From the NCBI RefSeq assembly GCF_004010195.1, contig NC_057718.1, positions 275,676 to 309,164 on the forward strand: a stretch of 33,489 nucleotides of DNA. The letters are read 5' to 3'. The notes beneath the pieces were generated by a model. The model had not been told where the DNA came from, made no database searches, and worked only from the letters and a program-made list of their open reading frames with translations. A program made the translations under genes and the position numbers. Of the stretch, positions 2,237 through 33,175 are shown one piece after another (the stretch's first letter is position 1; every line of letters begins with the position of its first letter). The DNA is from Chiloscyllium plagiosum. Lineage: Eukaryota.

Positions 2237-2650
2237 AACAATGAATGGGTAACCCATAAGTGAAAACAAGGGCAAAGTGACTGAAACTCAAATCCTGAAC
2301 TTGGCACCGGTTCCCTCCCCTTCTCTGAGGGTAAAGACTTGGGGTCGAGTCTATCTCTCTTCAGCTCAACTTATTTAATACAAAGACTAACAACAGTACA
2401 GTTCACTCTACTGCTTGGTACTTTTTAATGAACGTTTTCATTATTTATAAAGTGACGTTATAGAAACAGTCAGTGGAATGGTGCCTTTTCTAATTGGCCC
2501 CGAGTTGAGAGAAACATTGAAACGTGTCCCTGCAACCCCCTGTGGGATATGGTTGGATAAACCAACACTAACCTCAGTCTGTTACCATAGCGACAGACTG
2601 TTTCATTGCTGAAACATGAAACTGAAATGAGAAAATCCTGGATGGATTGA

Positions 2651-3558
2651 TTAGTGAGAGAATTTGATTGATGGATGAATTTGGGTAAAGGGATATTTCA
2701 GCGCATTCTTCAGCTGCTGCCTGAACTTAGTCTGGGTCATGGCATAAATCGCGGTGTTTGTGCAGCAACTGAGGAGCTGCAGCATGAAGCCCAATTCCAT
2801 CACGAACAAACTTAGAAACATAGACTTATAGCCCAAATACCACATCCGGTTCCATATAGAATACACCATTAATGTTGACCATAATAGGATGAAATTGGCC
2901 GAGATGACAAACAATAAAATGATGGATTTTTTTCGATTTTGCATTTCGGTGTCACATTGAACATCCCCATTGGTTTGAGCCCGGAGTCTCCTGCGGGCTT
3001 TGCTGGTCACTAAAATGTGTCTAATGGTGAAAATGTTGAACAGTAGAATCAGGAGAAATGGGAGAGTCGGAGTTAGAATCTAGTGGAGGAACTCGATTGT
3101 GACCCAGACACGGGAGTAAACAACACCTTTTGTTCCTCCACAAAACCAGGGGTCGTTTTCCAGCCAATACTCACCTGTTAATAAAAAATACCAGAAAATG
3201 TTCTTTAAACAGCTCAGCACAGTCACTGCTCCCAGAACCACAACCGCCGTTTTCTCACTGCAATATTTACTTTTCAGTTTCTGGCAACAAATGGCCACAA
3301 ATCGATCGAAGGTGAAAGTGACGGTGAACCAGACAGAACAGTCAGTGGCTGCATAAAGCAGGACGGCGTGGATATTACACACAGGGATGGAATACATGAA
3401 GGCAAACTCTTCAGCATAAACAATGGGAATGTGTCTCAGGATCAGGTCAAGGATAATGACCAGGAGATCCGCCGCTGCCATGGCCCCCAGGTAACGTCTG
3501 ACACATGGAGACAATCCACAATCTTTATAAAGCAGGACATAGATGGTCACAACATTAA
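2651..3558 (-). pseudogene. Exon 2 of a class A (rhodopsin-like) GPCR, GPR139/GPR142-like; in-frame TAG at 3080-3082
   Basis: ORFs 3080-3577 and 2651-3010 are in the same frame. The joined reading gives late TM1 (VNVVTIYVL), TM2 MAAADLL, TM3 PVCN...TFDRFVAIC, TM4, ECL2 WFC, TM5 EFLH*ILTPTLPFLLILLFN, TM6 KSIILLFVISANFILLW, TM7 SCCTNTAIY and helix 8 KFRQQL, ending in TAA at 2651-2653. Confidence 0.9.
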
Positions 3559-3585
3559 CTGTGAAGAGGGAAAACAAAGAAATTA
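3559..3585 (-). promoter_or_regulatory. Splice acceptor of the GPCR intron
   Basis: The minus strand reads tttctttgttttccctcttcacAG|TTAATGTT: a polypyrimidine tract with AG at 3560-3559. Phase 1 matches the donor at 19713. Confidence 0.85.
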
Positions 3586-4171
3586 TCCATCAGCCTGGAT
3601 GCAAGATTACCAGATCGATTCAGGAGAAAGTGAGATTTTCAAATGTGTCAATGTATGCAGAGACTTGTTGAAGGAATTGAATCTTAAATAACAAATGGGA
3701 AGGTCTGAATTGCTGACAAAAGTGTGATGTAATTCACAAAAATACCCGCCCTCCCCAAACACACAGACCCACATTGATAGGAACAGATGGCTTCCTCGAA
3801 CATTCCCACACACTCAAACACTCTCGAGCAGGCACAGGATTCTCCTGAAGGATTCTCTCCCAGTTCCTTGAAGACAAAGGAGTTTTGGAAATTTCTGTCT
3901 CTTAGTCTAAGTTGTGGTCTATTCTCTGTAGTGAAGAAATGTAAATGCAGAGAAGATGTATACACCGCTTTTACTGCCTGAGGGGATTTCAAAACATTGT
4001 TTCCTTCTTTCTGACTTGGGAGTTCTTGTCTCATTATAAAATACAATTTATGACAGAAATGCTTTTGTCCTCAGATGTTACCGTGAACATTCCCAACTTA
4101 TATCTTCTTCATTGCTAACAAAGATTCTATTGTCCTTTGCCTTGGACTATTTCTGTCTATACTGGTTCCAT

Positions 4172-4375
4172 AGTCTCCCACTCAGTTGGCTCGACGGCTG
4201 GTTTGAGATGCAGGGGAGGCCAACAGTGTAGGTTCAATTCCCACAATGGTAAATGTTACCATGAATGGCCCGCTTTCTCATCTCACCCCTTGCCCGGTAT
4301 GTGGGGACCGTCAGGTTATACAACCATGACTGCGATCTCCTTAACAAGTCACCGAGGACTATAGCAACTTTATTC
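4172..4375 (+). mobile_element. tRNA-derived SINE of a family distinct from HE1
   Basis: A-box-like ctcagttggctcga and B-box ggttcaattccc about 50 nt apart; about 200 bp long, ending ggactatagcaactttattc. Confidence 0.65.
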
Positions 4376-4689
4376 TATCATTGTTAGCATAATAAAAAAT
4401 TCTCTGCATTATCCTTTATATTTCCATTTTATTCCTGGGTGTTCTGGATATCCACTGTTGCATTTTACCCCACACTGCACATTCCTGCCCTCTCCACGAT
4501 AATCTTATACTCCGTTGTTACTCATGAATCTGTTTGTGCCTCAAACATACTCAATACCTCTCCGTCTGATGCTATCTGGTGATCAGAGTTTCAAAGACTC
4601 CCAACACTCTGAAAAAAATAGCAAACCTTCTCTGTTTTAAATGGAAAATGATTTTAAACAGGCATAAAGTGGGCCCACTGTCTGTACTT

Positions 4690-5132
4690 TCAATCAACTT
4701 TAGGATGGAGATGTTGGTGCAGCTCTACCCTGTCTGACGAGAACACATCGGGAGGACTGTGTGTGAAGGTTGTTTTGATCTCTGGTATGATAGCATTTAA
4801 AATTTGTGATGAAGAGAAGAGCAGTAAGACTAGAAAAGGAAGCAGTTACTCTCCAAACTCGGTCAGAACAGGGATGAGGAGAAATTCATAATGCGGGAAT
4901 TCATTCGAGTTGGAACTCTTTTTCCCAGGAGTTTGTGATGGCTGGATCATTTAATTATGTTGAGGCTGGCGTTGTTTGAGTTTGATAGACAAGTGAATCA
5001 GGAATAATGGAGTATGGACAGAAAAGTGCAGCTGGGACCACAATGAGAAGAGCCACGATCTTATTTACTGGTGCAGTAGCGTTAAAGGTCCAAATGAACC
5101 ACTCATGCTTCTCAGTCCTATGTTCTCTTATT
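4690..5132 (+). mobile_element. Old CR1 3' fragment
   Basis: Decayed CR1 ORF2 C-terminus and 3' UTR (gggatgaggagaaattc...) ending cctatgttctcttatt. Confidence 0.55.
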
Positions 5133-5164
5133 CCGTTCAGCCCTTTGAACCCTGCTACACAGGA

Positions 5165-6486
5165 GCGGACTCCAATTTGCCTATCGGACCAACAGACCCA
5201 TGTCAGATGCCATATCACTTGCCCTTCAGTCCTTCCTAGAACATCTTGACACCAAGAATAGCTACGTAAGAATCCTACTCATTGACTACAGTTCAGCCTT
5301 CAACACTATTATCCCCACGAGACTGATTACTTAACTTAGTGATCTCGGACTAAGCCCCACTCTCTGCAAATGGATCCTCAGTTTCCTGACCCACAGGCCA
5401 CAGTCAGTGAAGATTGGGGCCAATATTTCATCCTCAGTAGCACTCAACACTGGAGCCCTCCAGGGGTGGATACTCAGCCCCCTAGTGTACTCACTGTATA
5501 CCCATGACTGCGTCGCCAAATACCAGACTAAAGCTATTTACAAGTTCGCTGATGACACCACCATAGTCGGTCGACACCACCATTGTCGGGCGACAAAACA
5601 GACTACAGATGGGAGGCGGAAGACCTGGAAAAATGGTGCACTGAGATCAACCTAGCTCTCAATGCCAGCAAAACCAAGGAACTCATTATTGACTTTCAGC
5701 AGGATGGCACTCATTCCTGATTAAGGGCTTTTGCCCAAAACGGTGATTTTCCTGCTCCTCGGATGCTGCCTGACCTGCTGTGCTTTTCCAGCACCACTCT
5801 AATCTAGACTCTGTTACTCATGTCCCCCTACACATTAACAGCACAGAGGTGGAACGAGTGGAGAGTGTCAAGCTCCTGGGAGGGGTCACCAACAACAAGC
5901 TTTCTTGGACTCTTCATGTGGATGCACTGGTTACAAAGGCCCAACAACGTCTCGTCTTCCTCAGGCAGCTGAGAAAATCTGGCATAACGACGAATACTCT
6001 CGCCACCTTTTATAGGTGCACCATGGAGAGTATTCTGTCTGGATGTATCACTACCTTGTACGGCAACTGTACCATTCAAGATCGGAGACGGTTACAGAGA
6101 GTGGGGAACTCGGCCCAGACAATCACAAAGGCCAACCTCCCATCTATAGAATCCATCTACCAGGCCCGCTGTCAAGGAAAGGCCTCCAGCATTCTCAAAA
6201 ATCCATCCCACCCTGGCAATGTTTTTCTACAACCTCTACCATCAGGGAGAAGGTACAGAAGCCTGAACACATGCACCAGCCGGTTTCGAAACAGTTTCTA
6301 CCCTACTGTTGTTAGAATACTGAATGGACTCACAAACTCTTAACATTCGGCTGTACCTGTGTTTTTGCTTTTGCTGCTGTTTACCTCTTATTTACTAGCT
6401 ATGCTATTTAACTCTGTGATCTGCCTGTATTCCTCACAAGACAAAGCTTTTCACTGTGCCTCTGTGCATGTGACAATAAATTAAAT
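5165..6486 (+). mobile_element. 5'-truncated Rex1/Babar LINE (RT, C-terminal domain, 3' UTR), disrupted
   Basis: Motifs [75 protein letters not shown] and LPSGRRYRS...RFRNSFYP; 3' tail ...catgtgacaataaattaaat. Confidence 0.9.
5706..5812 (+). mobile_element. Penelope-like terminal-repeat (pLTR) fragment nested in Rex1
   Basis: cattcctgattaagggcttttgcccaaaacggtgattttcctgctcctcggatgctgcctgacctgctgtgc matches the other pLTR copies. The Rex1 reading resumes after it. Confidence 0.85.
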
Positions 6487-6754
6487 ACAGGCTACTTGAT
6501 TGGTTCAGTGAAGGTTGGAAAATCGACTTGGCAAATCTGGGCTGGGATCCCCAGACCTGTCCCTGTTTCCAGGCTTCCCATCTCTCCAACCTCGGATTGA
6601 GACATTGGTCATGCTACAAACGCGGATTCACTGTAGTACAGCCCCCATACCTCACCCATGATTAACTCAACCAAATCCCCTGGTCTCCCTGAATGCAACA
6701 TTGCACAACACGATGTCCATGAAAATTACCAGTTACTTTCCAATAATAGACCAC

Positions 6755-8700
6755 AAAAACATAAGAAATAGGAGCAGGAGTAGGCAATTCTACCACTCAA
6801 ATCTACTCTGTCATTCAATAAGAGCATGGATGATCTGTTCCATTGCTCAAAACTACTTTGATGCCAACACCTTGTATCCCTCAACTCAACGATATGTCAA
6901 AAACCCATTCAGCTCATATCTATAAATACTTTCAGTGGCCTAGCCCCCCAAACCTCTGTGGGTTAGGGAATTCCAGACATACACAACCTTCTGAGAGAAG
7001 GAATTTCTTTTTGTCTTAGGTCCACATCAACGTCCCTTGTTCTGTATCTATGTCCCGTGTTCGAGACTCCGCCCAGGAGTGGAAACACCTTCAGAACATC
7101 AGCCTTGTCAAACCCTCTCTGTATCTTGTATGTTTCAGTAATATCACCCCTCATTCATTTCAAATGCAATGAATAAATACCTAAACATTTTAGATGTTTT
7201 TAATAACTCAACACATCCATCCCAGGAAACAATCTAATTAATCAACCTAGTTTCTTGCTGCAACAGCGTGCTAATTTTATATTTCATACACAGGAAGACT
7301 CCAATCCCTTTGTACTGCACTTGCGTTTTGGAATCCTATCTATTAAATAACAGCCTGCCTTTTGGCTCTCAGTGCTAAAGTGTATGATCTCATGCTTTTC
7401 TCTTTACAATAAACTCCATCTGCCAATGATTTGCCCGATCACTGACTGTATGCACATCCCATTTCAGATTGCTTGCATCCTTACTGCAACACACTCTCCC
7501 ATATATGTTTCCCTCATCCACAAACTTGGATATGTATTGCACTCAGCCCCCACCTTGAAGCCATCTGTATAGATTATAAATAACTGATGCCATTGGTCTG
7601 ATATTTACAGCTCTCCAGTAAATACATCTTATTAATCTGATAATCCCATTCATCCACACTCTCCACCTCTGCGTTAACCAATCTACGTTCCATGATAATT
7701 TATTATCTGTCATGCGCATGTGTTCAGGCTTCTGTACCTTCTCCCTGATGGTAGAGGTTGTAGAAAAACATTGCCAGGGTGGGATGGATCTTTGAGAATG
7801 CTGGAGGCCTTTCCTTGACAGCGGGCCTGGTAGATGGATTCTATAGATGGGAGGTTGGCCCTTGTGATTGTCTGGGCCGAGTTCCCCACTCTCTGTAACC
7901 GTCTCCGATCTTGAATGGTACAGTCTTGTCTTGCGTAATGACTTTTATTTTCTGCTACCGTGTAGAAAATCTCTGGAAAGTCAAGTGCACTGCCTCGCAG
8001 TCCCCTTTTATCAATTCTGTTTTTCATATTCTCAAGGAAGTTCTGCAAGATTTTGCATGATTTTACAGGCCAAAATATAATTTCCTTTTCACAAAACCAT
8101 GCTGACTCTGTGTGAAGCTTTTCTAAATGTGCTGCAATCCTTTCCTTAATAACGGAGTCTAGCAGATTGTCAGCTAAATCGTCCAGAGATTCCAGCTTTT
8201 TGTCTCACTTCTTCCTTGAAGATCGGCACCACATTGGAGGTTCTCCAGTCTCGTTGGAACACTCCTGTAATCCAGGGTTTTATGGAATATTTCAAACAAT
8301 GCTGCCAGTTGCTCTGCAACTATTTCCATTAAAACTGTGTATCATTTGTTGCTGACTTGTGTACCCTTGTCTGGTAGTCCAAAACCTTCTTCCTTTTGTT
8401 AGAGACAGTTCACAGACTTTCCAGCTATTATCATTTGCTTATATCATTGACAGAAATACAGTGTCTTCCACTGTGTGGAATGATGCAAAATATTGTTTTA
8501 AATTATCTGCCTGTTCCATGTCACCAATTCGCCAGTATCATCCTCCAAGTGTCCCACATATACTTCCGTGATTTTCTTTCTTCCTTCCAAGGGTCACACA
8601 TTCATCTTGAACCTTTTTTTTATATTTACACGATAAAGCTCATGTTACTTGTTTCTTGATTTCTTGGCAATTTATTTTCAAATTATTTCTCTTGCTTTTC
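6755..8700 (-). mobile_element. Old decayed CR1 LINE with internal deletions
   Basis: The 3' end cataagaaataggagcaggagtaggc is at 6759; MRGDITETYKIQRGFDKAD in ORF 6963-7154; further RT remnants. Confidence 0.75.
7716..7924 (-). mobile_element. Internal Rex1 fragment, an inverted near-identical copy of 6066-6274
   Basis: The 209-bp reverse complement aligns to 6066-6274 with 2 mismatches (CTIQDRRRLQRVGNSAQTIT...RYRSLNTC). Confidence 0.92.
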
Positions 8701-8794
8701 TTTGCTTCATAGAATCGTCGGGCACAGAAACAGACCATTCATTCCCAATGGTCCATGCCGATCAGGTTTTACAAACTAAATTAGCTCCACTTAG

Positions 8795-9350
8795 TTTCTT
8801 GACTTTCATGGCCTTATGTGGTAGAGAATTTCCTAGGTTCACCAATCTCTGAGTGCAGAAATTTATTCTCCTTTCACTGTAGAGTGGCCTGTCTGTACCT
8901 AATACTGTGGCCCTTTGTTTTATAAATCCCAGCCAGGGAAATTATCATCCTTGCTTCCAATATGTCTTTGTCCTGTGAGAGTTTGATCTATTTTAATGAT
9001 ATCTCCACTAATTTTCATAAACCTCATGGAAAACAGACTCAGTTGCCCCAAACTCTGCCCCCATAACAAACCTGCCATCCTGGAGATCAGTCCGGTCATC
9101 CTTCACTGCACTCACTCAACATCAGGTTTCTCCCTTCCTAGGTAAGAAAATCAAAACTGCACAGAATTCAGTACAATACTCAAGGTGAGGTCTGTTGAAG
9201 GCCTTGTTCAGCTGCAGTAAGGCAGCCTTACTCCTGTACCAAGATCTCCTTGAGATGAAGATCAACTCATCATTTCTTTTCCAACTGTTTTCTGCTTCTG
9301 AAATATTGCTTTCTTTGACTGGTACACAGGGAGATCCAGATCCTTTCAAT
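8795..9350 (-). mobile_element. Old CR1 3' region
   Basis: ORF 9122-9349 contains LLQLNKAFNRPHLEYC, a CR1 ORF2 C-terminal motif. Confidence 0.75.
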
Positions 9351-9429
9351 GTTACTGCTACCCTGTTAGAGGGGTCCTATGTATACTGACTCTTGATAAA
9401 TATGTACCGGTCAGGCAGAGAAGTCGTTG

Positions 9430-11406
9430 GTTGAGTGTGGGAGCTGTGGTTCACCAAGGAAGTTGAAGAAGAAGGCTTATGTTAGGATGACATATGATGG
9501 CTCATCCTAACATAAGTTAGGGTGCTTGAGAGTTATAAGTTAGCCAGGAAAGACCTAAAGAGACAGCTAAGAAGAGCCAGGAGGGGACATGAGGAATCAT
9601 TGGCAGATAGGAATAATGAAAACACTAAGGCTTTCCATTGCTACATCAAGAATAAAAGAGTGACACAAGTAAGATGAGGGCCAATCAAGCATAGTAGTAG
9701 GAAGTTGTGCATGGAATCAGAGGAGATAAGGGAAGCGTGAAATGAATACTCTTCATCAGTATTCACACTGAAAATAGACAATGTGGTTGAGGAGAATACT
9801 GAGATAGACTAGATGGGATTGAGGTGCATAAGGAGGAGGTGTTAGCAATTCTAGAAAGTGTGAAAATAGATAAATCCCCTGGGCCAGATGAGATTTATTT
9901 TAGGATTCTCTAGGAAGTCAGGGAGGAGATTGCCAAGCCTTTGGTTTTGATGTTTATGTCATCATTGTCTACAGGAATAGTGCCAGACGACTGGAGGATA
10001 GTAAATGTTATTCCCTTATTCAAGAAGGGGAGTAGAGACAACCCTGGAAATTATAGACCAGTGAGCCTTACTTTGGTTGTGGGTAAAGTGTTGGAAAGAG
10101 TTATAAGAGACAGGATTTATAATCATCTAGAGATGAATAAGTTGATTAGCAATAGTCAACGCAGTTTTGTGAAGGGTAGGTCATGATTCACAAACCTTAT
10201 TGAGTTCTTTGAGAAGGTGACCAGACAGGGGATGACAGTAAAGTGGTTGATGTGGTGTACATGGATTTCAGTAAGGCATTTGATAAGGTTCCCACAGTAG
10301 GCTATTGCTGAAAATCTAGAGGCATGGGATTGAGGATGATTTAGCAGTTTGGATCAAAAATTGGCTAGCTGAAAGAAAGATAGAGAGTAGTGGTTGATGG
10401 GAAATATTCATCCGGGAGTTCAATTACTAGAGGGGTTCCACAACAATCTGTTTTGGGTCCACTCTTGTTGGTTAATTTTATAAATGACCTGGATGAGGGC
10501 ATAGAAGGATGGGTTAGTAAATTTGCTAAGGTCGGTAGAGTTGTGGATACTGACGAAGGATGTTGTAGGTTACAGAGAGACATAGATAAGCTGCAGAGCT
10601 GGGCTGAGAAGTCGCAAGTGGAGTTTAATGCAGAAAATTATGAGGTGATTCACTTTGTAAGGAGTAACAGGAATGCAGAGTACTAAGCTAATGGTAAAAT
10701 TCTTGGTAGTGTAGATGAGCAGAGAAGTCTCAGTGTCCAGGTACATAGATCCTTGAAAGTTGTCATCCAGTTTGATAGGGTTTTTAAGAAGGCATATGGT
10801 GTGTTAGCTTTTATTGCTAGAGGAATTGAGTTTCAGAACCATGAGGTCATGCTGCAGATCTGGTGCGGCCGCATTTGGAGTTTTGCATACAGTTCTGGTC
10901 ACTGCATTGTAGGAAGGATGTGGAAGCTTTGGAAATGGTTCAGAAGAGATTTACTAGGATGTTGCCTGGCATGGAGGGAAGATCTTATGAGGAAAGGCTG
11001 AGGGAACTGAGGCTGTTTTTGTTAGAGAGAAGAAGGTTGAGAGGTGACTTATTTGAGACATATGAGATAATCAGAGGGTTAGATAGAGTGGACAGTGAGA
11101 ACCTTTTTCCTCAAATGGTGATGGCTAGCACGAGGGGACATAGCTTTAAATTGACGGGTGGTAGATATAGGACAGATGTCAGAGGTAGTTTCTTTACTCA
11201 GAGAGTAGCAGGAGCGTCAAACGTTCTGCCTGCAACAGTGATAGACTCACCAACTTTAAGGGCATTTAAGTGGTTATTTGATAGGCATTTGGATGAGAAT
11301 GGAATAGTGTAAGATAGCTGGGCTTCAGATTGGTTCCACAGGTCGGTGCAACATCAAGGGCCAAAGGGCCTGTACTGTGCTGCAATGGTTTATGTTCCAC
11401 GTTCTA
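9430..11406 (+). mobile_element. 5'-truncated CR1 (HER1-like) LINE with disrupted ORF2 RT
   Basis: Motifs DWRIVNVIPLFKKG..NYRPVSLT, MDFSKAFDKVP, GVPQQSVLGPLL, RPHLEFCIQFW and RRLRGDL; tail gggcctgtactgtgctg..tatgttccacgttcta; multiple stops and frameshifts. Confidence 0.92.
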
Positions 11407-11641
11407 TCTGACTTTGCCCATTAATTTCTGTCTGAATAATTTGTCCAAATCCGTTTATTTACTAATTTCATTTCAATCCCATTTTTCTCATCAGAATTAT
11501 GTTTCATAGTGTTACTGAGAAGATGTTTGTTTTGCTTAGCTGTTTTTCTGTGAAGACAGAAGTGAAGTAGTTACTTTATTGTTCTGCCATTTCCGTGTTC
11601 CCCATTTTCTCTTCTCTGGTTTCTGAGCGTAAGGAAGCTGA

Positions 11642-11697
11642 TTTCTGATGAAGGGCTTTTGCCCGAAACATTGATTCTCCTGCTCCTCGGATGCTTC
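11642..11697 (+). mobile_element. Penelope pLTR fragment with hammerhead core
   Basis: ctgatgaagggcttttgcccgaaacattgattctcctgctcctcggatgc. Confidence 0.8.
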
Positions 11698-12763
11698 CAA
11701 TGGGCCTGAACTGTTTCCTGTTTATTTTATTCCACTTGATGTACTTGGGGTTCTCCTGAGTCATTCCTTTCGAACTTCTCTGTGCTCCCGACTTATTCAA
11801 ACCCTTCTGCACGTGTTTTGTTTTAAGTTTCACTGCGATCACCTCACATTCTTTGAATCTCTGGAGAACACAGTTTCCTCATCAGACAATTTTTCCATCT
11901 GAGGGATTAATCTGGAGACTGTCAATTACACTTCGTCTGTGGTCAGTATATTCTACTTTTTACATTGGAACACCAAAATTGTACACAGTACTCCAGGTAC
12001 AGTCTCAACACCACTCTGCAACCGGCGCAGGATGTCTTGACTTCAATATTCTGATTCCATTTAAATGAAGGTCAACCCAACTTTTATCTCTCCATTTGCA
12101 AATGCACTCCCCAATACACTTTGCTTTAGTTTTATTTACAGACTCACTGTGTGTTCCTCAAGGAATCCACCTGAATATACCACAGCCACTGATTCTCCAT
12201 TGCCTATGCCTACAAGAAACATCTTCAAAAAATTACAAAAGTAATGTCAATTGTGATTTCTCTTCCATAAATGCTTGGTCATTCCTTAAAGTTTGGCTAA
12301 TACTTTCTTAATATCCAGTATTACATTCTTTATAGCCAATTCCAACAGATTCCTTACTGCAGATGATAAGTTCATTGGTCTGTAATTCGCCACTCTCCCT
12401 CTTCATCCCTTCTAAAATCGTCAGATTATGTTTATAATCTTCCACTTGTGCATAATGGCATCCTGTCTTAGCAGAATTTAGAGGGAAATAGCAGAGTGAT
12501 CACCAATGCAATCAATAGGGTAGTGACGTTTCCTCTGACATTATGGTATGAATGACATCTAGTCCCTCAAACCTATCAATGCCCAATCCAACTATGTTTT
12601 CAAATACTACCTCATTACTGATGAGAATGATTGTGGTCTTTAATTGCAGAAGTGCCATTGTTGCGTGGTATATCTGGGAAATTTTCTGAATCAATCTCCA
12701 TGAAGGCAGCCATGAAGGATATGTTTAGTTCTCCTGTAATTTCTCTGTTCTTTACAATAAATT

Positions 12764-13090
12764 GGGCGGCACGGTGGCACAGTGGTTAGCACTGTTGCCT
12801 CGCAGCGCCAGAGACCCGGGTTCAATTCCCGCCTCAGGCGACTGACTGTCTGGAGTTTGCACGTTCTCCCCGTGTCTGCGTGGGTTTCCTCCGGGTGCTC
12901 CGGTTTCCTCCCACAGTCCAAAGATGTGCAGGGCCAGGTGAATTGGCCATGCTAAATTGCCCGTAGTGTTAGGTAAGGGGTAAATGTAGGGGTAGAGTTT
13001 TGGGTGGGTTCGCTTCGGCGGGTCGGTGTGGACTTGTTGGGCCGAAGGGCCTGTTTCCATACTGTAATGTAATCTAATCTAAAAAAAAAA
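12764..13090 (+). mobile_element. Young full-length HE1-type V-SINE
   Basis: gggcggcacggtggcacagtggttagc (A box), gggttcaattccc (B box), V-domain, CR1-like tail gggccgaagggcctgtttcc, then taatctaatct and A10. CpGs are retained. Confidence 0.93.
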
Positions 13091-14094
13091 TTATCCTATT
13101 CTGCTCATTCACTGTTCTACATTTTGCCTTGCTTTTATTTTCCTTTCAAAAATCAATAGAATATTTTCAGCAGTCTTTATGTTTCTTGTTAGCTTGCATT
13201 CATGTTCTCTTCTTGATTTTCTTGTCAGTTTCTTGGTCCTCCTTTTGTGTGTTAAAAATTTCTCTGAATCCATTGCTTACTACAATATCTGGCATTTTTC
13301 TAAGCTGCTTTCTTTTTGATGTAATGCAATTGTTAAATTTTTTTGTTTACCATTGTTTAATTACCTTTCCATTTTGTTGTTTGCACTTTGGAGGGATACA
13401 TAATAGACATTGCCTGTCTTGCATTAAATATTTTTCATTCACTTTTGCAATTCACTGAAGCCAACATGCCCCCCCCCATGCCTTCAATATATTATAATCA
13501 TTGCTCCCAAAAGCTCTTGACAGCAAGGTATTCAATTAGCTCTTCTGATCACACAGCACCAATTCCAAAACAGCCTGATCTCAAGCTCAGTGTTCAACAT
13601 TTTGTGAAAGCAAACCATCTCTTACACGCTCACAAAATCCACTTTTCCAGCATTCGCATTCATTTTGGGTTCACTTTGGTTTAGATGAAACTTGAATTTC
13701 TCCATTGCTACTGAAATATCCACAAATTAGTATATCTAATTTCCTATTTGATAACATGCCCAACATTCGTGTTGCAGATTTGACCTTGATATTTAACTCC
13801 CACCAATGTTTGCTTCTCCTTGCTCTGCACGATGTTGCCTCTGGGAAGACTTGGGCGAGATACTTGGCGAGAACTTTCGTGACGGTGAGAACACCTTATC
13901 TATTCTTCTGAAGCGTGATTGTGACAGTTTCATGATTTCTCCTGTTATGTTGGTGAAGTAGAAATGGACAATGATCCATTATCAATGTTGTGCATTCCTT
14001 CAGATAGCTGAGGCTGCTCCAATCCGGGCTGAAATGCTAGAGCAGGCTGGGAAAGTGTTGTTGACTGTGTGCAGAAACTTATTGAGATCCTGTC

Positions 14095-14280
14095 TGAAGT
14101 AATGTGAACACGTTTAGTCTCCTCACCGAAGAAGGATATTGTTGAATTGGAAGCAGCTGAGGGATGGTTCCCTCAACTGATTCCTGCAATGAAAGTGTTA
14201 GATTGTAAGGAAAGGATGATCAGGCTAATCCAATGCCCATTGGAATCTACAAGAATGAATGATGATCTTATTTTTACATC
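14095..14280 (+). mobile_element. Old CR1 ORF2 C-terminal fragment
   Basis: LEAAEGWFPQLIPAMKVLDCKERMIRL...ESTRMNDDLI resembles CR1 LExVQRRFTRLIPGMxxLxYEERL...RRMRGDLI. Confidence 0.7.
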
Positions 14281-14998
14281 GAACACTGGAAGGAGTCAGA
14301 AACAGAAGCCAGTTAAACAGCAAATGGAGGAATCCATTGCACTTCTCCAGCCTGTTACACAGGAACAGCAGAGGTACATTCACACATTTGACAATTTTAC
14401 ACCAGAGCAGAACGAGACTATTCAGCTCATGGAGCCTGATGTACAGTTATGGAGGATGCCACTCTGCCCCTCGAGCTTGTAACACAGGACACAGTGTAGG
14501 CAATGCAGGAGCTATACTCCGTTAAAAAGGAACAGAATCAGTCCATTCAGCCTCTTCATGTCTATAACACGGCAAATGGAAGAGGCACACGAGGTGATTA
14601 TTTTGGTATACTGGAATAATTAAATGCCATTCAGCCCATTGAACCTTTTGCAATGGAATTGCTGAAGGATGCAACTATCTGAAAGTTTTTGTATAGGAAA
14701 GGAAGAGGTAAATCAGCCATGTTTCTGTTGTATGGAAACAGGAGAAGACTAATCACTCTCTCAATCCAATTTTCAGAATGTAAGAGGAGACCAGTCAATA
14801 TCTGGAGCTTGTTATGGAGGAATAGGAGGAGACCCTTCAGCCCCTCAAACTGTACACAGCAACAGGAGAAGGACATTCAGGCCATCGAGGCGATAATGAG
14901 TGAAAACCAGAATGACACCAGCCCATCATCGATTTTATACACAAGCAAGATGAGACCATTCCGCCATTCTCCCTCTTACAAAGGAATCAGAGCAGATC
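14281..14998 (+). repeat. Degenerate minisatellite, about 42-bp unit, about 17 copies
   Basis: Units recur about every 38-44 bp; consensus by eye aacaggaggaggccattcagcccctcgagcctgttacacagg. Confidence 0.75.
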
Positions 14999-15099
14999 TT
15001 TTAATGTTTTGTGCCCATTTTACACGATTTGGAGGGGAATGTAGAGATTATAAAAAGGGAATGACTTGGAATAACCATCTTCACTAGCGAATTAAAAAT

Positions 15100-16680
15100 T
15101 AGTGACAAAACTGTTGGAAATTATCACAAGTTGTGAGAATCCATTATTCTGGAATTAATTACAGGACTTTGCAAAATCAAACCATAATTCATGAGAGTCA
15201 GCATGGTTTTATGAAAGATAAATCGTGTTTGAATTATTTTGCTTGAGTTACATAGAACATAGAACATTACAGCGTAGTACAGGCCCTTCGGCCCTCGATG
15301 TTGCGCCGCCCTGCCATACCAATCTGAAGCCTACCCACCTACACTATTCCATGTACGTCCATACGCCTGTCCAATGACGACTTAAATGTACTTAAACTTG
15401 GCGAATCTACTACCGTTGCAGGCAAAGCATTCCATACCCTTACTACTCTCTGAGTAAAGAAACTACCTCTGACATCTGTCTTATACCTATCTCCCCTCAC
15501 TTTAAAGTTGTGTCCCCTCGTGTTTGTCGTTCTTTAATGATGAGACAAGAAAGGTGGATAAATTGGATCTTGGAGATGCAATATATCTTGACTTCGAGCA
15601 GACACTGAATAAGGTATTGCACAAAAGATTAATCTGTAAAATAAGATTGTATGAGATTAGGAGTAATTTATTTGTTTGGACAAAGGATAAGCAAGCCAAC
15701 AGAATGCAGAGAGATGGAATAGATACGTCGTTTTCTGTTTGACAACTTTTGGGGTGCCATAGAGTTTGGTTCCCAGACCTGAATTAATTTCAATCTATAT
15801 TATTACTTGGGTGAGGGGACATAAAATCTTATTGCCAACTTTTCAGATGAGACTGAAATAGGTGGACTGAATATGTAAGAAATTTACAAATAGATATGGA
15901 CATGGTGAACAGGCCAACATTTGGCAGATTGAGTTTAACGTGGAGAGGTATGAGGTTACCCATTTTGGTCAGAAGAATAGAAAGGCAACTTACTAATTAA
16001 ATGAAGAGAAACTTCAGAGTGCTTAGGTACAGAGGGACTTGTGTTTTGTCTCACATATCTCAGAAAACTCACATGCAGGTCCAGCAGATAATAAGAAAGG
16101 CAAGTACAGTTTCAACCTTTATTTCTAAAAGAATAAAATAAAAATGTGAGGAAATATTGCTGCAACTGTGCAAGGCATCAGTGAAGCTGCAGCTGAAGTA
16201 CTGTGTGGAGGGATGTGGTTGCATTGGAAGTTTTTTGGATGAGGCTCTCTAGATTGATTCCAGAGATGAGGAGTTTGACTTATGAAGAGAGATTGAGCAG
16301 CTCAGGCCTCTATTCTCTGGAGTTCAGAAGAGTGAGTGGCGATCTCACGGAGACATGTCCAATGCCAAATATGATTGACAATGCAGATGTGGATTAGATA
16401 TTTCATCATGTGGTGCAATCCACATTAAGAGATCATGGTTTTTAGGAATGATGGAGCAGAATTGAAACAGGAGTGAAGAGAAATTACTTCTCTCAAAAGG
16501 TTGTGAATTTGAGTAATTCACTAATAAGGAGTGCAATGGATGGAGGAACATTGAGCAAATGAAAGGATATGGAGAACGGGAAGGAAAGTGGAACTGAGGC
16601 CTAGTTGAAGTCTGTCATTATCGTATTAACTGGTAAAACAGGCTTGAGGGGTTGAATTGCTGACTGATGCTCAATGTTTT
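15100..16680 (+). mobile_element. Old CR1 RT-to-3' end remnant
   Basis: gagagtcagcatggttttatgaaa (SQHGF), DAIYLDFEQTLNKVLHKRL and LTYEERLSSSGLYSLEFRRVSGDL. Confidence 0.75.
15251..15528 (-). mobile_element. Young 5'-truncated CR1 3' end nested in the older CR1
   Basis: catagaacatagaaca tail repeat followed by CpG-rich caggcccttcggccctcgatgttgcgccg; it interrupts the host at gcttgagtt/gttcttt. Confidence 0.85.
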
Positions 16681-16739
16681 TATTCAGCCTTTTGAATGTG
16701 CTGCACAGGAATGGGGGAGGACTAGTTATTAAACAAGAA

Positions 16740-17088
16740 ACAGGCACTCGGGATAAATCAGTCTTGATCAGTTTGACAGAATGTAAGTAGTGGAGTCATA
16801 CAGTGACCAGTGCTGTGTCCTCAGCTATTTCCAATCAATATCAATGAATAGGAGGAGTGGAACAAATGTACTGTAACTAAGCTTGGCAAAGACACGAAGA
16901 TAAGCAGGGAATTAAATGATCAAGATAAGGTGGAGAGTCTGCAATGGGATATAAACAGGTTAAGTCAATTGATAATAATTTAGCAGCTGAATAATAAAGT
17001 GAGATATAAGCTGTCGATGTTTTTTTGTATCAGGAAGAATGGAAGACAGCATGTTACTGAAATGGAGAGAGATTGCAGCATTTAGTTG
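16740..17088 (+). mobile_element. Old CR1 RT fragment
   Basis: Decayed SGVxQxxVLxPQLF, KLGKDTKI and LQWDINRL motifs. Confidence 0.55.
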
Positions 17089-17089
17089 G

Positions 17090-17890
17090 TCCAGTGTGTA
17101 CTGAAGGGTTCACTCTGACCCGTTCAGAAATCAGAGGTATTGTACCACCTCCCTGGGACCATGCTCCCTGATATTCCCAGGTGGCCCCATTACTCTCAGT
17201 ACGCGTGGGATTTTTGATGTGTTTGGTCGGTGGAGGTGGTGAGCAGGAGGGTGTTTTGAACCGTGTGTCAAGGGATTGGCATTTATCTGAGAAGCCATCC
17301 TTTCTTTCTCTGTAGAGACCCAAAAGTCGTGGGAATGGCTGACTGCTTCTGAATGAAGACTGCCTCAGAATGCTGCTGGGACAATGGGTATTCACCAACA
17401 TGATGTAGTGTACTTTGGTCACACTGCAACATTAATGGAGTGAGACTTCCTTCATTTTCTCTACCTCTCCACATTGATATGGGGTCCCTGCACAGCCATG
17501 AACACCATCGGGAATCCCACTATACTGGGAAAATAAAGATACAACTGATAGTTCCGTGTTGAGGTATTAAACATTGTATTCGTCTCATCCACCGTATATA
17601 TCCTTCGTCACCGAATGGTGACATCATGTAACACATGGGAAGCTCATTGATATGTCACCCACTCCTTCCGCAAAAATTCCAGATCATAGAAGCTGAATGA
17701 AACTGTGATGTTAACAGCCACTGACAGCACCACCCTCCCCTTGGAGTGAAGCTGTAGGTCTTATTGAAGAAAATGACATCACTGTGTGCCCTGTTCCTGT
17801 TCAATCAGGGTCCCCTCACACTCTGCTCCTGGGATAAGTGTAGCTTGGGAAGCTGGTCTTGGAAAACCCAGGGTGGATACAGCAGATCCC
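17090..17890 (-). mobile_element. Decayed PIF/Harbinger (HARBI1-like DDE) transposase
   Basis: Minus-strand blocks occur in the correct order across frameshifts: LYPPWVFQDQLPKLHLSQEQSVR, LSVAVNITVSFSFY, SIVGFPMV, QCDQ/HYIMLVNTHCPSS, FIQKQSAIP...KGWLL, DKCQSLDTRFKTP and QYL*FLNGSE*TLQY. Compare Harbinger GFPxV, FILRQS, GWLLGDKGYPL, MTP and RFRCLDRSGGxLQY. Confidence 0.75.
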
Positions 17891-19707
17891 TTTCCCCACA
17901 CACACTGACTCCGTGGTTTCAGAGCTTCCCCTCTCTGCAGCCTCTGTTCCGTTTGTTGTTCATGTTACAGACCCAGATGCAGTAACTACTGTCCCCAGAC
18001 TCCATCCAGAGTTGGGTCACCAAATCCTCACGTCCCCCTGAATGTCTGAGGCAGCTCACAGCACAACCTCCAGCAAACCATCCCCAGCACCTCCACTAAC
18101 GGTTCAGTAACAGGTGCCAGTCTCAGACTACTGAGCTACATATTCAATGCCTGATCTTTTTGAGTAATACTCAAAGGGCTTCCTCATATTACTGGGTGCA
18201 GGATCAGCTGAGAGCATCAAACGCAGTTGTTCAGTGGACAGGCAAAGGCCAACTTTCAAAGACGTGAGTCAAAGCTGCTGAAACTCCCAGTCCAAGATGG
18301 TACAATACACAGGACAGATCAGTTTCAGATTGACAGCATTCGATATGCTAAGGAGCCAACAACGTAAGCCAGGGAAAGGTAGAGAGAAACAGAAAGACTT
18401 ACATTTAAGATAGAAGCACACAATTAATTAACTGGCAATCTGCTGTGGAAACAAGGGGAAAAGACAGGGGAATGGGACTAACTGGAGGAGGCAGACCCTG
18501 GGCAATGCAATCACAAGAATGAGAACACTGAATAAGGGTTTTGCCAGATCACTTGAAATGGCTCGTTACATCATATTCTGAAACTGCCTCACAGAACCGG
18601 CCAAGACGTCATAAACTGGGTCAAGATGACAGCCCGGCCTGGGCAGCTGTGGAAACTGCGGGAGTGTATTGCTAAGTCAATGGACTAACTGCCAAGCATG
18701 GGGAGCATTGCAAATCTTTGCCAGTATATTGGTACTGTACTTGCATGGGATAATTACCGAGCATGGGGAAATTTGCAGCCTATTCTGTGAGTGACAGTAA
18801 ATGGAGCTCCCACACATTTACACTATATCTCCACTGCATTAGAACAGAGCAAGGGGTATTGTGAATGTTGGTGGATTTGATTTGGTTGGTGGTAGTGTGG
18901 TAGATGTCATATTTGTTGTTTGAGAGAGAATGTTTACATAGTCAATCAGTTTAAATATGAATTCTGGCAGGAGTTTGGGTAATCGACACCGAGAAACTGA
19001 GATACATTTAATGGACAGTTGTGATGACATGTTTAAGATTAAAATAAAGACATTCCAAACCCAATAACAATATAGATCAATGCACATAGAAATGACGGAT
19101 GGATGGAATTTTGGTGTGTGTTTAGATATAAGCTTTGGAGTAGCGATTAAGATCCGCTTCTGCGCATTAGAAGCTCAGAGTGTCAACAGTAGATCGTTGA
19201 CATAATTAAGACTGTATTTCGTAGCTCAAGATTGAAATAGAATATGGGATGAGCCAGTGAAGTACATTCTAGAGGTGTCAGTCATTACAATTAGGAATGG
19301 TCAGGGATTGGTGTCAGGAATCAGCTCATGGCCAAAGAGATTACTGCAATTGTGATTCGTCAGTTTCAGTCTCAGATATTCACTAGGGGTGGGATGGATT
19401 CAGAGGAAGCAAAACCAGTTTGTAACCAAAACAGAAGACAGTGGCCTCCATGCTCCCAATATACAAGGGCAATGATACAATTAATCATGGTTCACTTCTT
19501 AAACATAGAGACCCACGAGGGACAGTACCAGAAGCAAACAGGAACAGTGAAAGAATAAACTCATTGATGCAGTTAGTCATTTGTAGAGTGAACATCTGGA
19601 TTGAGATTCTCAACAAGAACAATACCAGAGCCAAGGAGACTGGAGTAAATGAAAAGAAAGGTAATGTAGTCATACATGGATTGTAGAAAAAATAACTGGA
19701 CAGTGAG

Positions 19708-19713
19708 ACTTAC
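19708..19713 (-). promoter_or_regulatory. Splice donor of the GPCR intron
   Basis: The minus strand reads GGT GTC CCT G|GTAAGT: a perfect consensus donor, phase 1. Confidence 0.88.
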
Positions 19714-20054
19714 CAGGGACACCAATGATAGCCAGGATAAGATCATGAAAATATTTAATAACCAAAAGTGCATAATATATCCAACATGATAATGGCATTT
19801 AATAATAAAATGTAGAAAAACACAAACAGTCCAGGATAATTTCCTGCCCATTGCTGTAAAATTCCATTCTATCATTCCCAGATTCTGGTCAATGTTATAA
19901 CATTCCAATCTATTGTTCTCTGGTTCTGATCCATTTTTCTAACATTCTAATCAATTGTTCCAATATTTTGATCCATTGTTGAAACAGTCCAGTCTAATGT
20001 TCTCAGATTCTGATCTCTCCTCCTGTCTCTTTGGAGCTGCTGATCCCTGTTCAT
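19714..20054 (-). pseudogene. Exon 1 of the GPR139-like GPCR (repeat-containing N-terminus and first half of TM1), disrupted
   Basis: 19798-19714 reads MPLSCWIYYALLVIKYFHDLILAIIGVP+G and joins exon 2 as GVP-VN (the TM1 GxxxN motif). Upstream, MNRDQQ...RDQNLRTLDWTVSTMDQNIGTID*NVRK... has a TAG (19947-19949), a TAA (19799-19801) and two inferred frameshifts. The true start codon is uncertain. Confidence 0.8.
19831..20018 (-). repeat. Coding 21-bp (7-aa) tandem repeat, about 9 units
   Basis: RDQNLRT/LDWTVST/MDQNIGT/ID*NVRK/MDQNQRT/IDWNVIT/-DQNLGM (20 bp)/IEWNFTA/MGRKLSW. Confidence 0.85.
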
Positions 20055-21112
20055 GTTGTCATTAATTCTCCTGCTCATACAATGGGACAACACACTGGGA
20101 CGAAGCCCATTTATCACTAGAAGATGGAAACCCTCCAATAGGATAATTAGGATCACCAACAGGTTCAGTTAGCCCCTTCTTTACATCACTTTTTATATCA
20201 TAATGAAAGAAAATAATTACTGGGTCTGGATGGAATGGATGAGGGTTGATGAGGGATGAACCTTAAAATTTTCAATCTTTTTAATCTTTCTTCCTCTTGC
20301 ATCGGCATAGTAACAGAACACTGTGACCATATTTGTGAAAGGAAACAGGGATAAAATAACAGAGCAGCTGCATAAATTGACTAGTGGGGAACTTCCTACA
20401 GTCTATAAACCAGGGTAACAATATTCATTGCTCATTTACTTTGTGTAATGTTTCTCCTAGTTTTAAAAGCCCAGTTACCAAATCCATTAATAACTTTAAG
20501 ACATTATTGGGAACATTGGGTCTACTACTCAAGAACAGATGTAAGCTATTCTGTCCCCATGTGCCTGTTACAGAGGGATAAGAGTAAGCCATTCAGTCCA
20601 TACTAGCCTATTACCCCTTGAAGAGACAGAAAATTGAAATGTTGACACATTTTGCAAAGGGATTCATTCAACAATAGAGAAGAGAAGAGTTACGCAGCTG
20701 TACGAGCTGTTACTCCAATCACCACCAGGACAGAACCCCACTGGTCCTCACCTACCACCCCACCAACATCCATATAGTGCGTATCATCCATCGTCATTTC
20801 CGTCACCTCCAAACGGACCCCACCACCAGGGATATATTTCCCTCCCCTCCCCTATCAGCGTTCCGAAAAGACCACTCCCTCCGTGACTCCCTCGTCAGGT
20901 CCACACCTCCCACCAACCTAACCTCCACTCCTGGCACCTTCCCCTGCAACCGCAAGAAATGCAAAACTTGCGCCCACACCTCCCCCCTCACTTCCCTCCA
21001 AGGCCCCAAGGGATCCTTCCATATCCGCCACAAATTCACCTGCACCTCCACACACATCAACTATTGCATCCGCTGCACCCGATGTGGCCTCCTCTACATT
21101 GGAGAGACAGGC

Positions 21113-21241
21113 NNNNNNNNNNNNNNNNNNNNNNNNNNNNNNNNNNNNNNNNNNNNNNNNNNNNNNNNNNNNNNNNNNNNNNNNNNNNNNNNNNNNNNNN
21201 NNNNNNNNNNNNNNNNNNNNNNNNNNNNNNNNNNNNNNNNN
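21113..21241. other. Assembly gap (129 N)
   Basis: Run of n characters. Confidence 1.
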
Positions 21242-21361: not shown

Positions 21362-21389
21362 CTGAAGAAGGGCTCATGCCCGAAACGTT
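21362..21389 (+). ncRNA. Minimal hammerhead ribozyme core in a Penelope pLTR
   Basis: CUGAAGA-a-GGGC-ucau-GCCC-GAAAC-GUU. Confidence 0.6.
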
Positions 21390-21494
21390 GATTCTCCTGC
21401 TCCTTGGATGCTGCCTGACCTGCTGCGCTTTTCCAGCAACACATTTTCAGCTCTGATCTCCAGCATCTGCAGTCCTCACTTTCGTCTCCTTTTT

Positions 21495-23574: not shown

Positions 23575-24127
23575 TAAAAACAATGGCTGCAGATGCTGGA
23601 AACCAGATTCTGGATCAGTGGTGCTGGAAGAGCACAGCAATTCAGGCAGCATCCGACGAGCAGCAAAATCGACGTTTCGGGCAAAAGCCCTTCATCAGGA
23701 ATAAAGGCAGAGAGCCTGAAGCGTGGAGAGATAAGCTAGAGGAGGGTGGGTGTGGGGAGAAGCAGGTCGGACAAGTCCGGACAGGTTAAGGGGACAGTGC
23801 GGGCTGGAAGTTTGAAACTAGAATGAGGTGGGGGAAGGGGAATTGTAGGGGGGCATGGACCTGACCAGGTAGTCACAGAGGGAACGGTCTTTGTGGAAGG
23901 CGGAAAGGGGTGGGGAGGGAAATATCTCCCTGGTGGTGGGGTCTGTTTGGAGGTGGCGGAAATGTTGGACGATGATTTGGTTTATGCGAAGGTTTGTAGG
24001 GTGGAAGGTGAGCACCAGGGGCGTTCTGTCCTTGTTACGGTTGGAGGGGTGGGGTCTGAGGGCGGAGGTGCGGGATGTGGACGAGATGCATTGGGGGGCA
24101 TCTTTAACCACGTGGGAAGGGAAGGGA
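23575..24127 (-). mobile_element. Penelope-like element (linker and pLTR, GIY-YIG deleted) with 13-bp target-site duplication
   Basis: NKDRTPLVLTFHPTNLRINQII...PPLSAFHKDRSL; pLTR about 23575-23830; flanked by atagcagataagg at 23562-23574 and 24128-24140. Confidence 0.9.
23671..23698 (-). ncRNA. Minimal hammerhead ribozyme core in a Penelope pLTR
   Basis: Minus strand CUGAUGA-a-GGGC-uuuu-GCCC-GAAAC-GUC. Confidence 0.65.
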
Positions 24128-24596: not shown

Positions 24597-24745
24597 TCTA
24601 CTTTCTCCCCACCCCCACCCTCCTCTAGCTTATCTCTCCACGCTTCAGGCTCTCTGCCTTTATTCCTGATGAAGGGCTTTTACCCGAAACGTCAATTTTA
24701 CTGCTCCTCGGATGCTGCCTGAACTGCTGTGCTCTTCCAGCACCA
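24597..24745 (+). mobile_element. Penelope pLTR fragment; hammerhead core at 24666-24693
   Basis: Near reverse complement of about 23616-23760; ctgatgaagggcttttacccgaaacgtc. Confidence 0.88.
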
Positions 24746-25107: not shown

Positions 25108-25214
25108 AGAAAGTGAGGACTGCAGATGCTGGAGATCAGAGCTGAAAATGTGTTGCTGGAAAAGTGCAGCAGGTCAGGCAGCATCCAAGGAGCAGGAGAA
25201 TTCCCTTCAGGAAT
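25108..25214 (-). mobile_element. Penelope pLTR fragment with the hammerhead core deleted
   Basis: Reverse complement of about 21392-21483, followed by ggagaattcccttcaggaat. Confidence 0.85.
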
Positions 25215-28435: not shown

Positions 28436-28444
28436 TCATCTACT

Positions 28445-29330: not shown

Positions 29331-29339
29331 CTCGACAGA

Positions 29340-32961: not shown

Positions 32962-33175
32962 GATTAGTGGTGCTGGAGGAGCACAGCAATTCAGGCAGCA
33001 TCCGACGAGCAGCAAAATCGACGTTTCGGGCAAAAGCCCTTCATCAGGAATAAAGGCAGTGAGCCTGGAGCGTGGAGAGGTAAGATAGAGGAGGGTGGGG
33101 GTGGGAAGAAAGTAGCAGAGAGTACAATGGGTGAGTGGGGGATGGGATGAAGGTGATAGGTCAGGGAGGAGAGGG
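32962..33175 (-). mobile_element. Inverted Penelope pLTR; hammerhead core at 33020-33047
   Basis: Same family as the 23616-23760 segment; minus strand ctgatgaagggcttttgcccgaaacgtc. Confidence 0.9.

Follow-up and report, generated by a model that had tools for sequence, protein, structure and literature searches.

This locus raises the question of whether two coding pieces lying some 16 kb apart in the genome of the shark Chiloscyllium plagiosum belong to one receptor gene and, if they do, what kind of receptor it is and whether this copy still works. The stretch analyzed, called the window below, is 33,489 nt long; coordinates without a contig name are window positions, and the gene lies on the minus strand. 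The explanation that best fits the material is that positions 2243-20135 hold a single two-exon gene unit, now a pseudogene, within a very large family of shark and ray class A receptors, and we consider this reading highly probable. The locus itself would be an ordinary, recently dead family member, and the interest lies in the family behind it. The window copy serves mainly as an entry point to that family, for which it fixes the gene model with its small, far-upstream first exon.

Gene model and receptor class

A GTAAGT donor (19708-19713) and a polypyrimidine tract with an AG acceptor (3559-3580, TCTTTGTTTTCCCTCTTCACAG, the AG being 3560-3559) bound an intron of 16,155 nt (3559-19713). The GT is found at the homologous place in all eight aligned exon-1 copies, and the acceptor is kept in all ten exon-2 copies. 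The last base of exon 1 is the G at 19714 and the first base of exon 2 is 3558, so that 85 nt and 905 nt join into 990 nt, or 330 codons, with both junctions in phase 1. The protein then reads ...LAIIGVP/VNVVTIYVL... across the junction, and RefSeq models of related sharks share this join (...GVP/VNVVT...). The preliminary description of this DNA had given the donor at 19713, the acceptor at 3559, the phase of both, and the GVP/VN join; all of these checked out, and its figure of 330 codons from the ATG at 19798, with an internal TAG ignored, was correct on recounting.

Exon 2 contributes 905 nt of coding sequence in phase 1 (2654-3558), from the remainder of the first transmembrane helix (TM1) to TM7 and helix 8, as judged from Pfam 7tm_1 and the genome paralogues. 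It is followed by a terminal TAA (2651-2653) and a 3' flank (2243-2650) that is probably 3' untranslated region, being 72 to 85% identical to paralogues in blastn comparisons with loci L002-L010 and the C4 locus; AATAAA/ATTAAA-type words begin in it at 2429 and 2379. The exon 1 core (19714-19851; tblastn and paralogue alignment) encodes the first half of TM1 (...IYYALLVIKYFHDLILAIIGVP) and ends in phase 1 at G 19714. The 341-nt exon-1 stretch has at least 40 paralogues in the genome at 75 to 79% DNA identity over about 330 nt, and annotated relatives match 19715-20021 in three reading frames by tblastn. The gene had previously been read from the ATG at 19798-19796. The frame from there is indeed open through to the donor, but this ATG is not the start: it is the internal Met codon of "DWMSLS," which occurs in some paralogues too, and in the window copy a stop codon lies directly upstream of it in the same frame. 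The usual start of the family is the ATG at 19851-19849 (MGRKLSW...), according to the alignment and translation of seven paralogues.

Two paralogous loci carry the same arrangement. An intact exon 2 on contig C27 (C27:49750434-49751366) has an intact exon 1 15.4 kb upstream, and a blastn comparison of the 20 kb upstream of it with the window matched both exon neighbourhoods and five intron blocks in the same order and on the same strand. The match to window exon 1 spans 20135-19697, and the final 300 nt ahead of exon 2 match too. The blocks between them form an old intron backbone (14169-19471, minus strand) made up of 19471-18945, 18283-15532, 15239-14956, 14847-14433, and 14307-14169, with identities of 65 to 72%; the largest, 18283-15532, is 2.8 kb long and 72% identical to the C27 paralogue. 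A compact intact gene on contig C4 is also collinear, with an exon 1 of 53 codons (from the first Met) that ends in GTAAGT, an intron of 3,933 nt, and an exon 2 of 318 codons. The intron block just upstream of exon 2 (3590-4008) recurs in full in eight of ten paralogous upstream regions, and in part in one, at 70 to 74% identity, which is about the neutral level. Further exon pairs, assigned by coordinates, have introns of 8.3 and 9.1 kb (C49), about 11 kb (C8:280416/291871), 14.8 kb (C26), and 22 kb (C8:6758192/6735971). With the window and both of these loci collinear from exon 1 all the way into exon 2, the two exons in the window are best taken as one gene, and the sequence comparisons make the gene model at this locus well supported. 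That the exons belong together, as first proposed, was thus upheld by the order at the C27 and C4 loci, and the junction is as in the RefSeq relatives. Since both paralogues keep the order exon, intron, exon, the intron is ancestral.

The read-through translation of exon 2 matched Pfam 7tm_1 (PF00001) with 63.1 bits (cut-off, 30.5; E 3.7e-17; residues 12-282 of 312). For Stegostoma P0007, a relative with 85% identity, the AlphaFold model reached a predicted local distance difference test score of 91 and a predicted template-modelling score of 0.88, and it shows seven helices and helix 8 (residues 19-55, 62-91, 107-137, 148-165, 196-239, 250-287, 297-321, and 323-347) with a hairpin in the second extracellular loop (ECL2); the window copy's own TM5, unlike that of the model, is broken by the TAG. 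Compared with solved structures, the model retrieved at least 500 G-protein-coupled receptor (GPCR) chains at E ≤ 0.001, with NTSR1 and then GPR139 as the nearest folds. An alignment of 61 sequences shows conservation of 90% or more for C107 (TM3), C186 (ECL2), and D75 (TM2), in P0007 numbering, and the window copy has retained all three; judging by where they sit in the model, we take the two cysteines to be the disulfide pair and the aspartate to be D2.50. The conserved set also includes the tryptophan of TM6 and the N...Y of TM7, and the motifs are variants: DRF at the end of TM3 (D131-R132-F133), W273 in LLWST without the CWxP proline, and N314...Y318 in NTAIY without the NPxxY proline. 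The neighbours of P0007 in the Protein Atlas were generic class A receptors named GPR139-like or FMRFamide receptor-like and serve as leads only. On these sequence features, the window gene is best classed as a member of a class A (rhodopsin-like) GPCR family.

Family size, turnover, and selection

The genome searched was a 3.56-Gb assembly of 101,977 contigs. Exon 2 gave 127 scored matches, all at E ≤ 3.9e-160 (8,534 first-look candidates), and the exon-1 peptide gave 150, all at E ≤ 3.9e-15 (3,429 first-look candidates). Window exon 2 is 78 to 85% identical to the 126 other scored copies. In-frame stops were present in 18 of the 127 exon-2 matches, the window included, and in 16 of the 150 exon-1 matches, leaving 109 and 134 without. 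Codon-degenerate patterns were counted as well: for exon 2, ATDCSVWFTV occurred at 847 sites (reversed control, 0) and FTxDRFVxIC at 1,487 (reversed control, 1), and for the end of exon 1, YYPxLxxxG(V/I)PG occurred at 1,860 (reversed control, 4). The earlier suggestion of a multi-copy family was borne out by these matches and motif counts. By our estimate from sequence, the family comprises on the order of 1,500 to 2,000 loci, which is well over a thousand copies in one shark genome.

The copies are spread unevenly. The first 100 exon-2 motif places listed fell on C4 (3), C5 (1), C7 (14), and C8 (82, up to 51.9 Mb); C1-C3 and C6 carried none of them. Of the 127 top exon-2 matches, 81 lay on small unplaced contigs. 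Groups of copies were seen near contig ends, at about 111 to 116.4 Mb on C7, C4:85-221 kb, C9:278-296 kb, and 49.5 to 49.9 Mb of the 51.7 Mb of C27. On C8 (107.6 Mb), the first 6.84 Mb held 47 exon-1 motif matches and 13 exon-2 motif matches with the two patterns used, which would mean either a divergent subfamily that was missed or surplus first exons. At the window itself, the nearby duplication traces reported in the preliminary description were not recovered: with six relatives as tblastn queries, no match at E < 1 fell outside 2654-3613 and 19715-20021, and the sole local repeat is a 42-nt coding repeat within exon 1.

The window copy has about 450 nt upstream and 340 to 410 nt downstream of exon 2 in common with other copies at 70 to 79% identity, with the coding part at 87 to 88%. 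Younger copies are 87 to 93% alike over about 2 kb, including a minisatellite of about 40 nt upstream of exon 2. This intron minisatellite lies about 550 to 900 nt upstream of exon 2 in L002-L010 and is absent from the window copy. The homology of the window ends at -449 nt against eight of nine loci, and a sharp, transposon-like unit border at that point was considered and rejected, as it is a property of the window copy only; the other copies match each other further out. No transposon ends were seen at the paralogous loci compared, and the borders of the duplicated unit vary from pair to pair. Because introns are retained and collinear in the paralogues, the family spreads by DNA-level duplication of the whole unit and not by retro-copying. 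The ages of the duplicates are mixed, with synonymous divergence (dS) from 0.08 to 0.30. These ages, the order-specific clades described below, and the stops in a fraction of the exon-1 and exon-2 matches all fit the birth-and-death evolution that had been proposed.

The ratio of nonsynonymous to synonymous divergence (dN/dS) was estimated by the pairwise Nei-Gojobori method for the 36 pairs of nine intact copies, with loop limits taken from the AlphaFold model. The three extracellular loops (ECL1-3, 54 codons) had a median dN/dS of 1.32, with 27 of 36 pairs above 1, while sites lying over four residues away from any of these loops (225 codons) had a median of 0.28 and the whole of exon 2 (303 codons) had a median of 0.54, each with no pair above 1. 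Entropy in 32 orectolobiform sequences was distributed in a similar way: it was 0.07 to 0.23 bits in intracellular loop 1 (ICL1), TM3, and ICL2, 1.05 to 1.14 bits in ECL1-3, 1.04 bits in TM1, and 1.73 bits in the N-terminus.

These figures bear on a different view of the family, namely, that it is mainly selfish or passive repeat DNA that sweeps a receptor gene along, with most copies non-working and their open frames a sign of youth. The thousands of first-look candidates for both exons would suit such a view, as would the many top matches on small unplaced contigs, the concentration on C8, the lack of a detectable exon 1 within 20 kb in nine of ten copies (see below), and the LINE and SINE pieces (long and short interspersed nuclear elements) all around. 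We nevertheless judge it unlikely. The scaffold dN/dS of 0.28, with not one of the 36 pairs above 1 at a dS of about 0.11, points to purifying selection after duplication, and the variation is concentrated on the outer face instead of being even. Additionally, the large majority of the exon-2 and exon-1 matches carry no in-frame stop, different orders of sharks and rays have all retained the family, and unit borders differ between pairs with no shared transposon end seen.

With the family read as a set of receptor genes, its sequences suggest that the intact paralogues are ordinary signalling receptors, in which the membrane core and inner loops would be held constant while the N-terminus and the three outer loops diversified from copy to copy. 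Because it is the N-terminus and the outer loops that diversify, the extracellular ligands recognised would most likely differ between copies. Our best guess is that they are peptide-like, given the ECL2 hairpin in the model and nearest folds that are those of peptide receptors; an ECL2 hairpin is a feature linked with peptide ligands. The amino acid or peptide sensing role put forward in the preliminary description is a candidate function at this stage. The turnover by birth and death would be of the kind found in chemoreceptor or innate-recognition repertoires.

State of the window copy and pairing of its exons

In the window copy, the reading frame is interrupted by a TAG (3080-3082) at the extracellular end of TM5; this codon aligns with His, Tyr, or Asn in 31 relatives (residue 206 of Stegostoma P0007). 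The second lesion, the loss of 1 nt at 19823/19822, shifts the frame between the start codon usual for the family and TM1. Further upstream, at 19857-20015, lies a decayed coding tandem repeat (Tandem Repeats Finder: period 42, 3.8 copies, 72% matches) with stops and another 1-nt deletion, at 19894/19893. At both deletion sites the window lacks a base that is present in all seven paralogues aligned, the site at 19823/19822 corresponding to alignment column 286. In intact paralogues, the 42-nt units encode units of 14 amino acids of the type MDQNLRTLDWNVPT, each opening with ATG, which form an N-terminal ectodomain; they are followed by MDRSLS..., a variable stretch, and then ...IIQYFYYPxLxIVGVP at the donor. 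The number of in-frame units ranges from about 1 to 5 among the paralogues L031-L036 and L038, and the length of the N-terminus differs accordingly from gene to gene.

On this sequence evidence, the window copy is a pseudogene, and it had already been described as apparently dead; the deletion that cuts the start off from TM1 is a newly recognised lesion. It probably died recently, since it still keeps every family-conserved residue (57 of the 57 positions conserved at 90% or more in a 61-protein alignment). The same conservation could be read in another way, with the copy alive, its lesions being assembly errors or a private allele, and a receptor translated either from the family's usual ATG or from ATG 19798, which would leave only a very short N-terminus. 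The dN/dS of the window copy against nine intact copies (0.39 overall, 0.21 outside the outer loops) would agree with this, as would the open frame from ATG 19798 up to the donor. The TAG is one step from TAC, Tyr is seen at that site in relatives, and single-base deletions are a common assembly error. However, three independent lesions would have to be explained away, together with the stops in the upstream repeats, a substitution such as the TAG is not a typical assembly error, and the low pairwise dN/dS mostly reflects a long shared functional past. We therefore hold a living copy to be distinctly improbable and continue to treat the locus as a recent pseudogene.

The pairing of the exons was looked at from the side of the family as well. 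With 43 exon-1 peptides as queries (P0018 and P0099, which have LINE N-termini, were excluded), the 20 kb upstream of ten intact exon-2 copies contained one clear exon 1 and, for the nine other copies, none that could be recognised; one of those nine has an exon-1-like piece 22 kb upstream that lacks an open start beyond the internal Met. By a hand tally of the 26 exon-2 places that fell in the range spanned by the exon-1 motif matches listed, a same-strand exon-1 motif lay upstream of 12 within 100 kb and of 6 within 25 kb.

Several of these points weigh against the locus being a dead member of a very large family of working two-exon receptors. With no nearby exon 1 for most of the sampled copies, many family copies may be incomplete genes, and pairing by nearest neighbour is only weakly above the rough chance level that the motif density gives (about 29% at 100 kb and 8% at 25 kb). 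The copy counts include pseudogenes and may be inflated by uncollapsed haplotypes, although similarity among the nine copies sampled does not exceed 93%. The dN/dS medians are pairwise estimates from non-independent pairs of nine related copies that had been picked as top matches. Finally, as noted, errors in the assembly could account for the 1-nt deletions, and the TAG could be a private allele.

The pairing results also raise the prospect that exon 2 is a stray exon, with the exon-1-like piece left over from another, lost copy or with exon 2 spliced to a different first exon. The excess of exon-1 over exon-2 motif matches in the first 6.84 Mb of C8 (47 versus 13) and the missing nearby exon 1 of most sampled copies lend this some colour. 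It is made very unlikely by the same-strand succession of the two exons, with the intron blocks between them, at two paralogous loci, by the tblastn result that the window holds no further family exon, and by the about equal divergence of exons 1 and 2 from their nearest paralogues. The two exons are accordingly kept together as one gene unit.

Apart from the receptor gene, open reading frames and Pfam matches revealed only LINE and SINE debris in the window. Neither the C27 nor the C4 intron has anything that corresponds to the stretch of the window intron between 12783 and 3892, which is filled with LINE debris; decayed LINE pieces with reverse transcriptase fragments occupy 5335-11312 in the 3' half of the intron (open reading frames, with Pfam RVT_1 for 9914-10186). 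An open reading frame on the plus strand in this debris (5774-6343) matched Pfam ALKBH8_N at E 1.5e-11; this match probably stems from a repeat rather than from a gene. Two larger LINE remnants lie head to head upstream of the gene, at 26148-28563 on the minus strand and 29323-32148 on the plus strand, and match Pfam Exo_endo_phos and RVT_1 (best E, 3e-19). A SINE-like repeat of about 320 nt is present at 12764-13082 and 1920-2236 and again in the C27, C10, and C4 loci, in paralogue introns. Another repeat, of about 70 nt, occurs at 5728-5809, 11656-11698, 21379-21442, 23617-23687, 24677-24745, 25150-25201, and 32966-33036. A run of 129 Ns (21113-21241), either an assembly gap or a withheld stretch, falls within the repeat-rich region upstream of the gene.

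Kinship and comparison with known receptors

The public protein set contained 1,843 relatives at E ≤ 0.001, the best 120 of which all came from sharks; clustering at 50% identity gave 713 clusters within E ≤ 0.001, of which 110 reached E ≤ 1e-30. The organism was looked up for 30 cluster representatives. Sharks and rays accounted for 20 of them (Stegostoma, Chiloscyllium, Mustelus, Scyliorhinus, Heterodontus, Heptranchias, Pristiophorus, Rhinoraja, Leucoraja, Hypanus, Mobula, and Narcine), other animals accounted for 5 (coelacanth, salamanders, a teleost, a crocodile, and a bivalve), and for 5 no organism was given. All named representatives with at least 34% identity were elasmobranch, and no chimaera was among the 30 sampled. 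In a quick maximum likelihood tree of 63 rows, with support from the Shimodaira-Hasegawa-like approximate likelihood ratio test (SH-aLRT) only and a top-match sample biased toward the window subfamily, the window copy formed a deep, unresolved branch inside an orectolobiform clade (SH-aLRT, 100). Heterodontus (six of eight rows), the carcharhiniform rows, and Heptranchias fell into separate clades. Locus L005 was nearly identical to the Chiloscyllium punctatum protein P0006 (branches of 0.024 and 0.04; SH-aLRT, 99), which marks the genome as that of C. punctatum or of a species very close to it.

The RefSeq proteins of sharks and rays called "probable G-protein coupled receptor 139" or "neuropeptides capa receptor-like" are the same family as the window gene; examples are Rhincodon P0005, Stegostoma P0007 (85% identity) and XP_048419718.1, Mobula XP_062895290.1, and Narcine XP_069761045.1. 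They share with it the GVP/VN junction, the N-terminal 14-amino-acid repeats, and the conserved core, and the window gene for its part has the family's phase-1 TM1 intron at GVP/VN, its core residues, and at least 34% identity over exon 2. They differ from it in that they are machine predictions with a borrowed name and, in many cases, a makeshift N-terminus, whereas the window copy is broken. Such N-termini were seen in P0006, P0014, P0018, P0019, P0036, and P0047 and consist of intron read-through, unrelated short exons, or, in P0018, a fused LINE. Automatic annotation thus seems often to overlook the first exon, far away as it is.

Outside sharks and rays, the closest relatives recovered also bear the name GPR139, namely, proteins of coelacanth (XP_005988539.1), salamanders (XP_069092602.1), and a teleost (KAM4562537.1), with 30 to 32% identity at E 1e-18 to 1e-26; they form the outgroup in the tree. 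Against human GPR139, the coelacanth protein scores 70 bits and the salamander protein 53, so that neither is a true GPR139, and the name is thus a borrowed one. No sign of high copy numbers in those animals was seen, although no search aimed at this was made. GPR139 itself, which responds to aromatic amino acids, is an orphan receptor of class A, conserved, low in copy number, and found in the brain. Human GPR139 (PDB 7VUG and 9M42) was the sole solved structure to pass E 0.001 with the window protein (29.4 bits, E 4.6e-6), and it gave 38.6 bits and 21% identity with an intact whale-shark member. It was the best solved-structure sequence match for all four queries (window copy, whale shark, coelacanth, and salamander), second by fold, and it likewise lacks the NPxxY proline, with NFFLY aligned at the same place. 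The label "GPR139-like" used at the outset therefore stands as a pointer to the nearest solved relative by sequence, but the similarity behind it is remote (29 to 39 bits, about 21% identity), and GPR139 is low-copy against well over a thousand copies of the shark family. That the window gene might be the shark orthologue of GPR139 or GPR142, an aromatic amino acid receptor, as the RefSeq name and the best match for every query would have it, can be all but dismissed in view of the bit scores just given, the 847 to 1,860 motif sites in one genome, and the 713 clusters inside E ≤ 0.001, a limit outside which the GPR139 score falls when rescaled, by our own scaling, to that library; the preliminary description had named such an orthologue as a case against its own reading.

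Full-text literature searches, which leave most subscription journals outside, found no paper describing the shark family, and supplements may list members; it appears in gene catalogues yet is undescribed as far as searched. Cartilaginous fishes are portrayed, in the part of one article covered here, as poor in GPCRs and odorant receptors (PMC8455134). A family of well over a thousand copies whose core is conserved while its outer face diversifies is at odds with that portrayal. The covered portion of a catshark study names no such receptor among the 50 most specific genes of a "brain & olfactory epithelium" library (PMC11979771). This absence would be expected, because receptors expressed in one or a few cells each would not rank there. 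By analogy with known repertoires, it is possible, and we put it forward only tentatively, that the family is a large, undescribed sensory (smell, taste, skin, or gut) or innate recognition repertoire of some 1,500 to 2,000 loci per genome with an outer face under selection. The family is in this sense a candidate for how cartilaginous fishes sense part of the chemical or microbial world. If that were true, it would be among the largest receptor families of any vertebrate, visible until now only under a borrowed name.

Among known receptors, the nearest fold is NTSR1, which ranked first against the P0007 model (template-modelling scores of 0.68/0.74). NTSR1 and the opioid, chemokine, and neuromedin U receptors are peptide-binding class A receptors that have an ECL2 hairpin, and with 15 to 19% identity they resemble the shark family as fellow class A receptors, not as members of one family with it. 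The six-family chemoreceptor scheme, in the part of the publication covered here (PMC10869828), is without the shark family. In its mode of evolution, the family is closest to odorant receptors and trace amine-associated receptors, with which it has in common a copy number in the hundreds to thousands, lineage-specific clades, pseudogenes, and a conserved core with a variable ligand-facing part. MRGPR and the formyl-peptide receptors are other fast-evolving class A sets that evolve in a similar way. Unlike odorant and trace amine-associated receptors, to which its kinship is at the class A level alone, the shark family has a coding region split by a long TM1 intron, and its resemblance to chemosensory repertoires would be one of mode of evolution.

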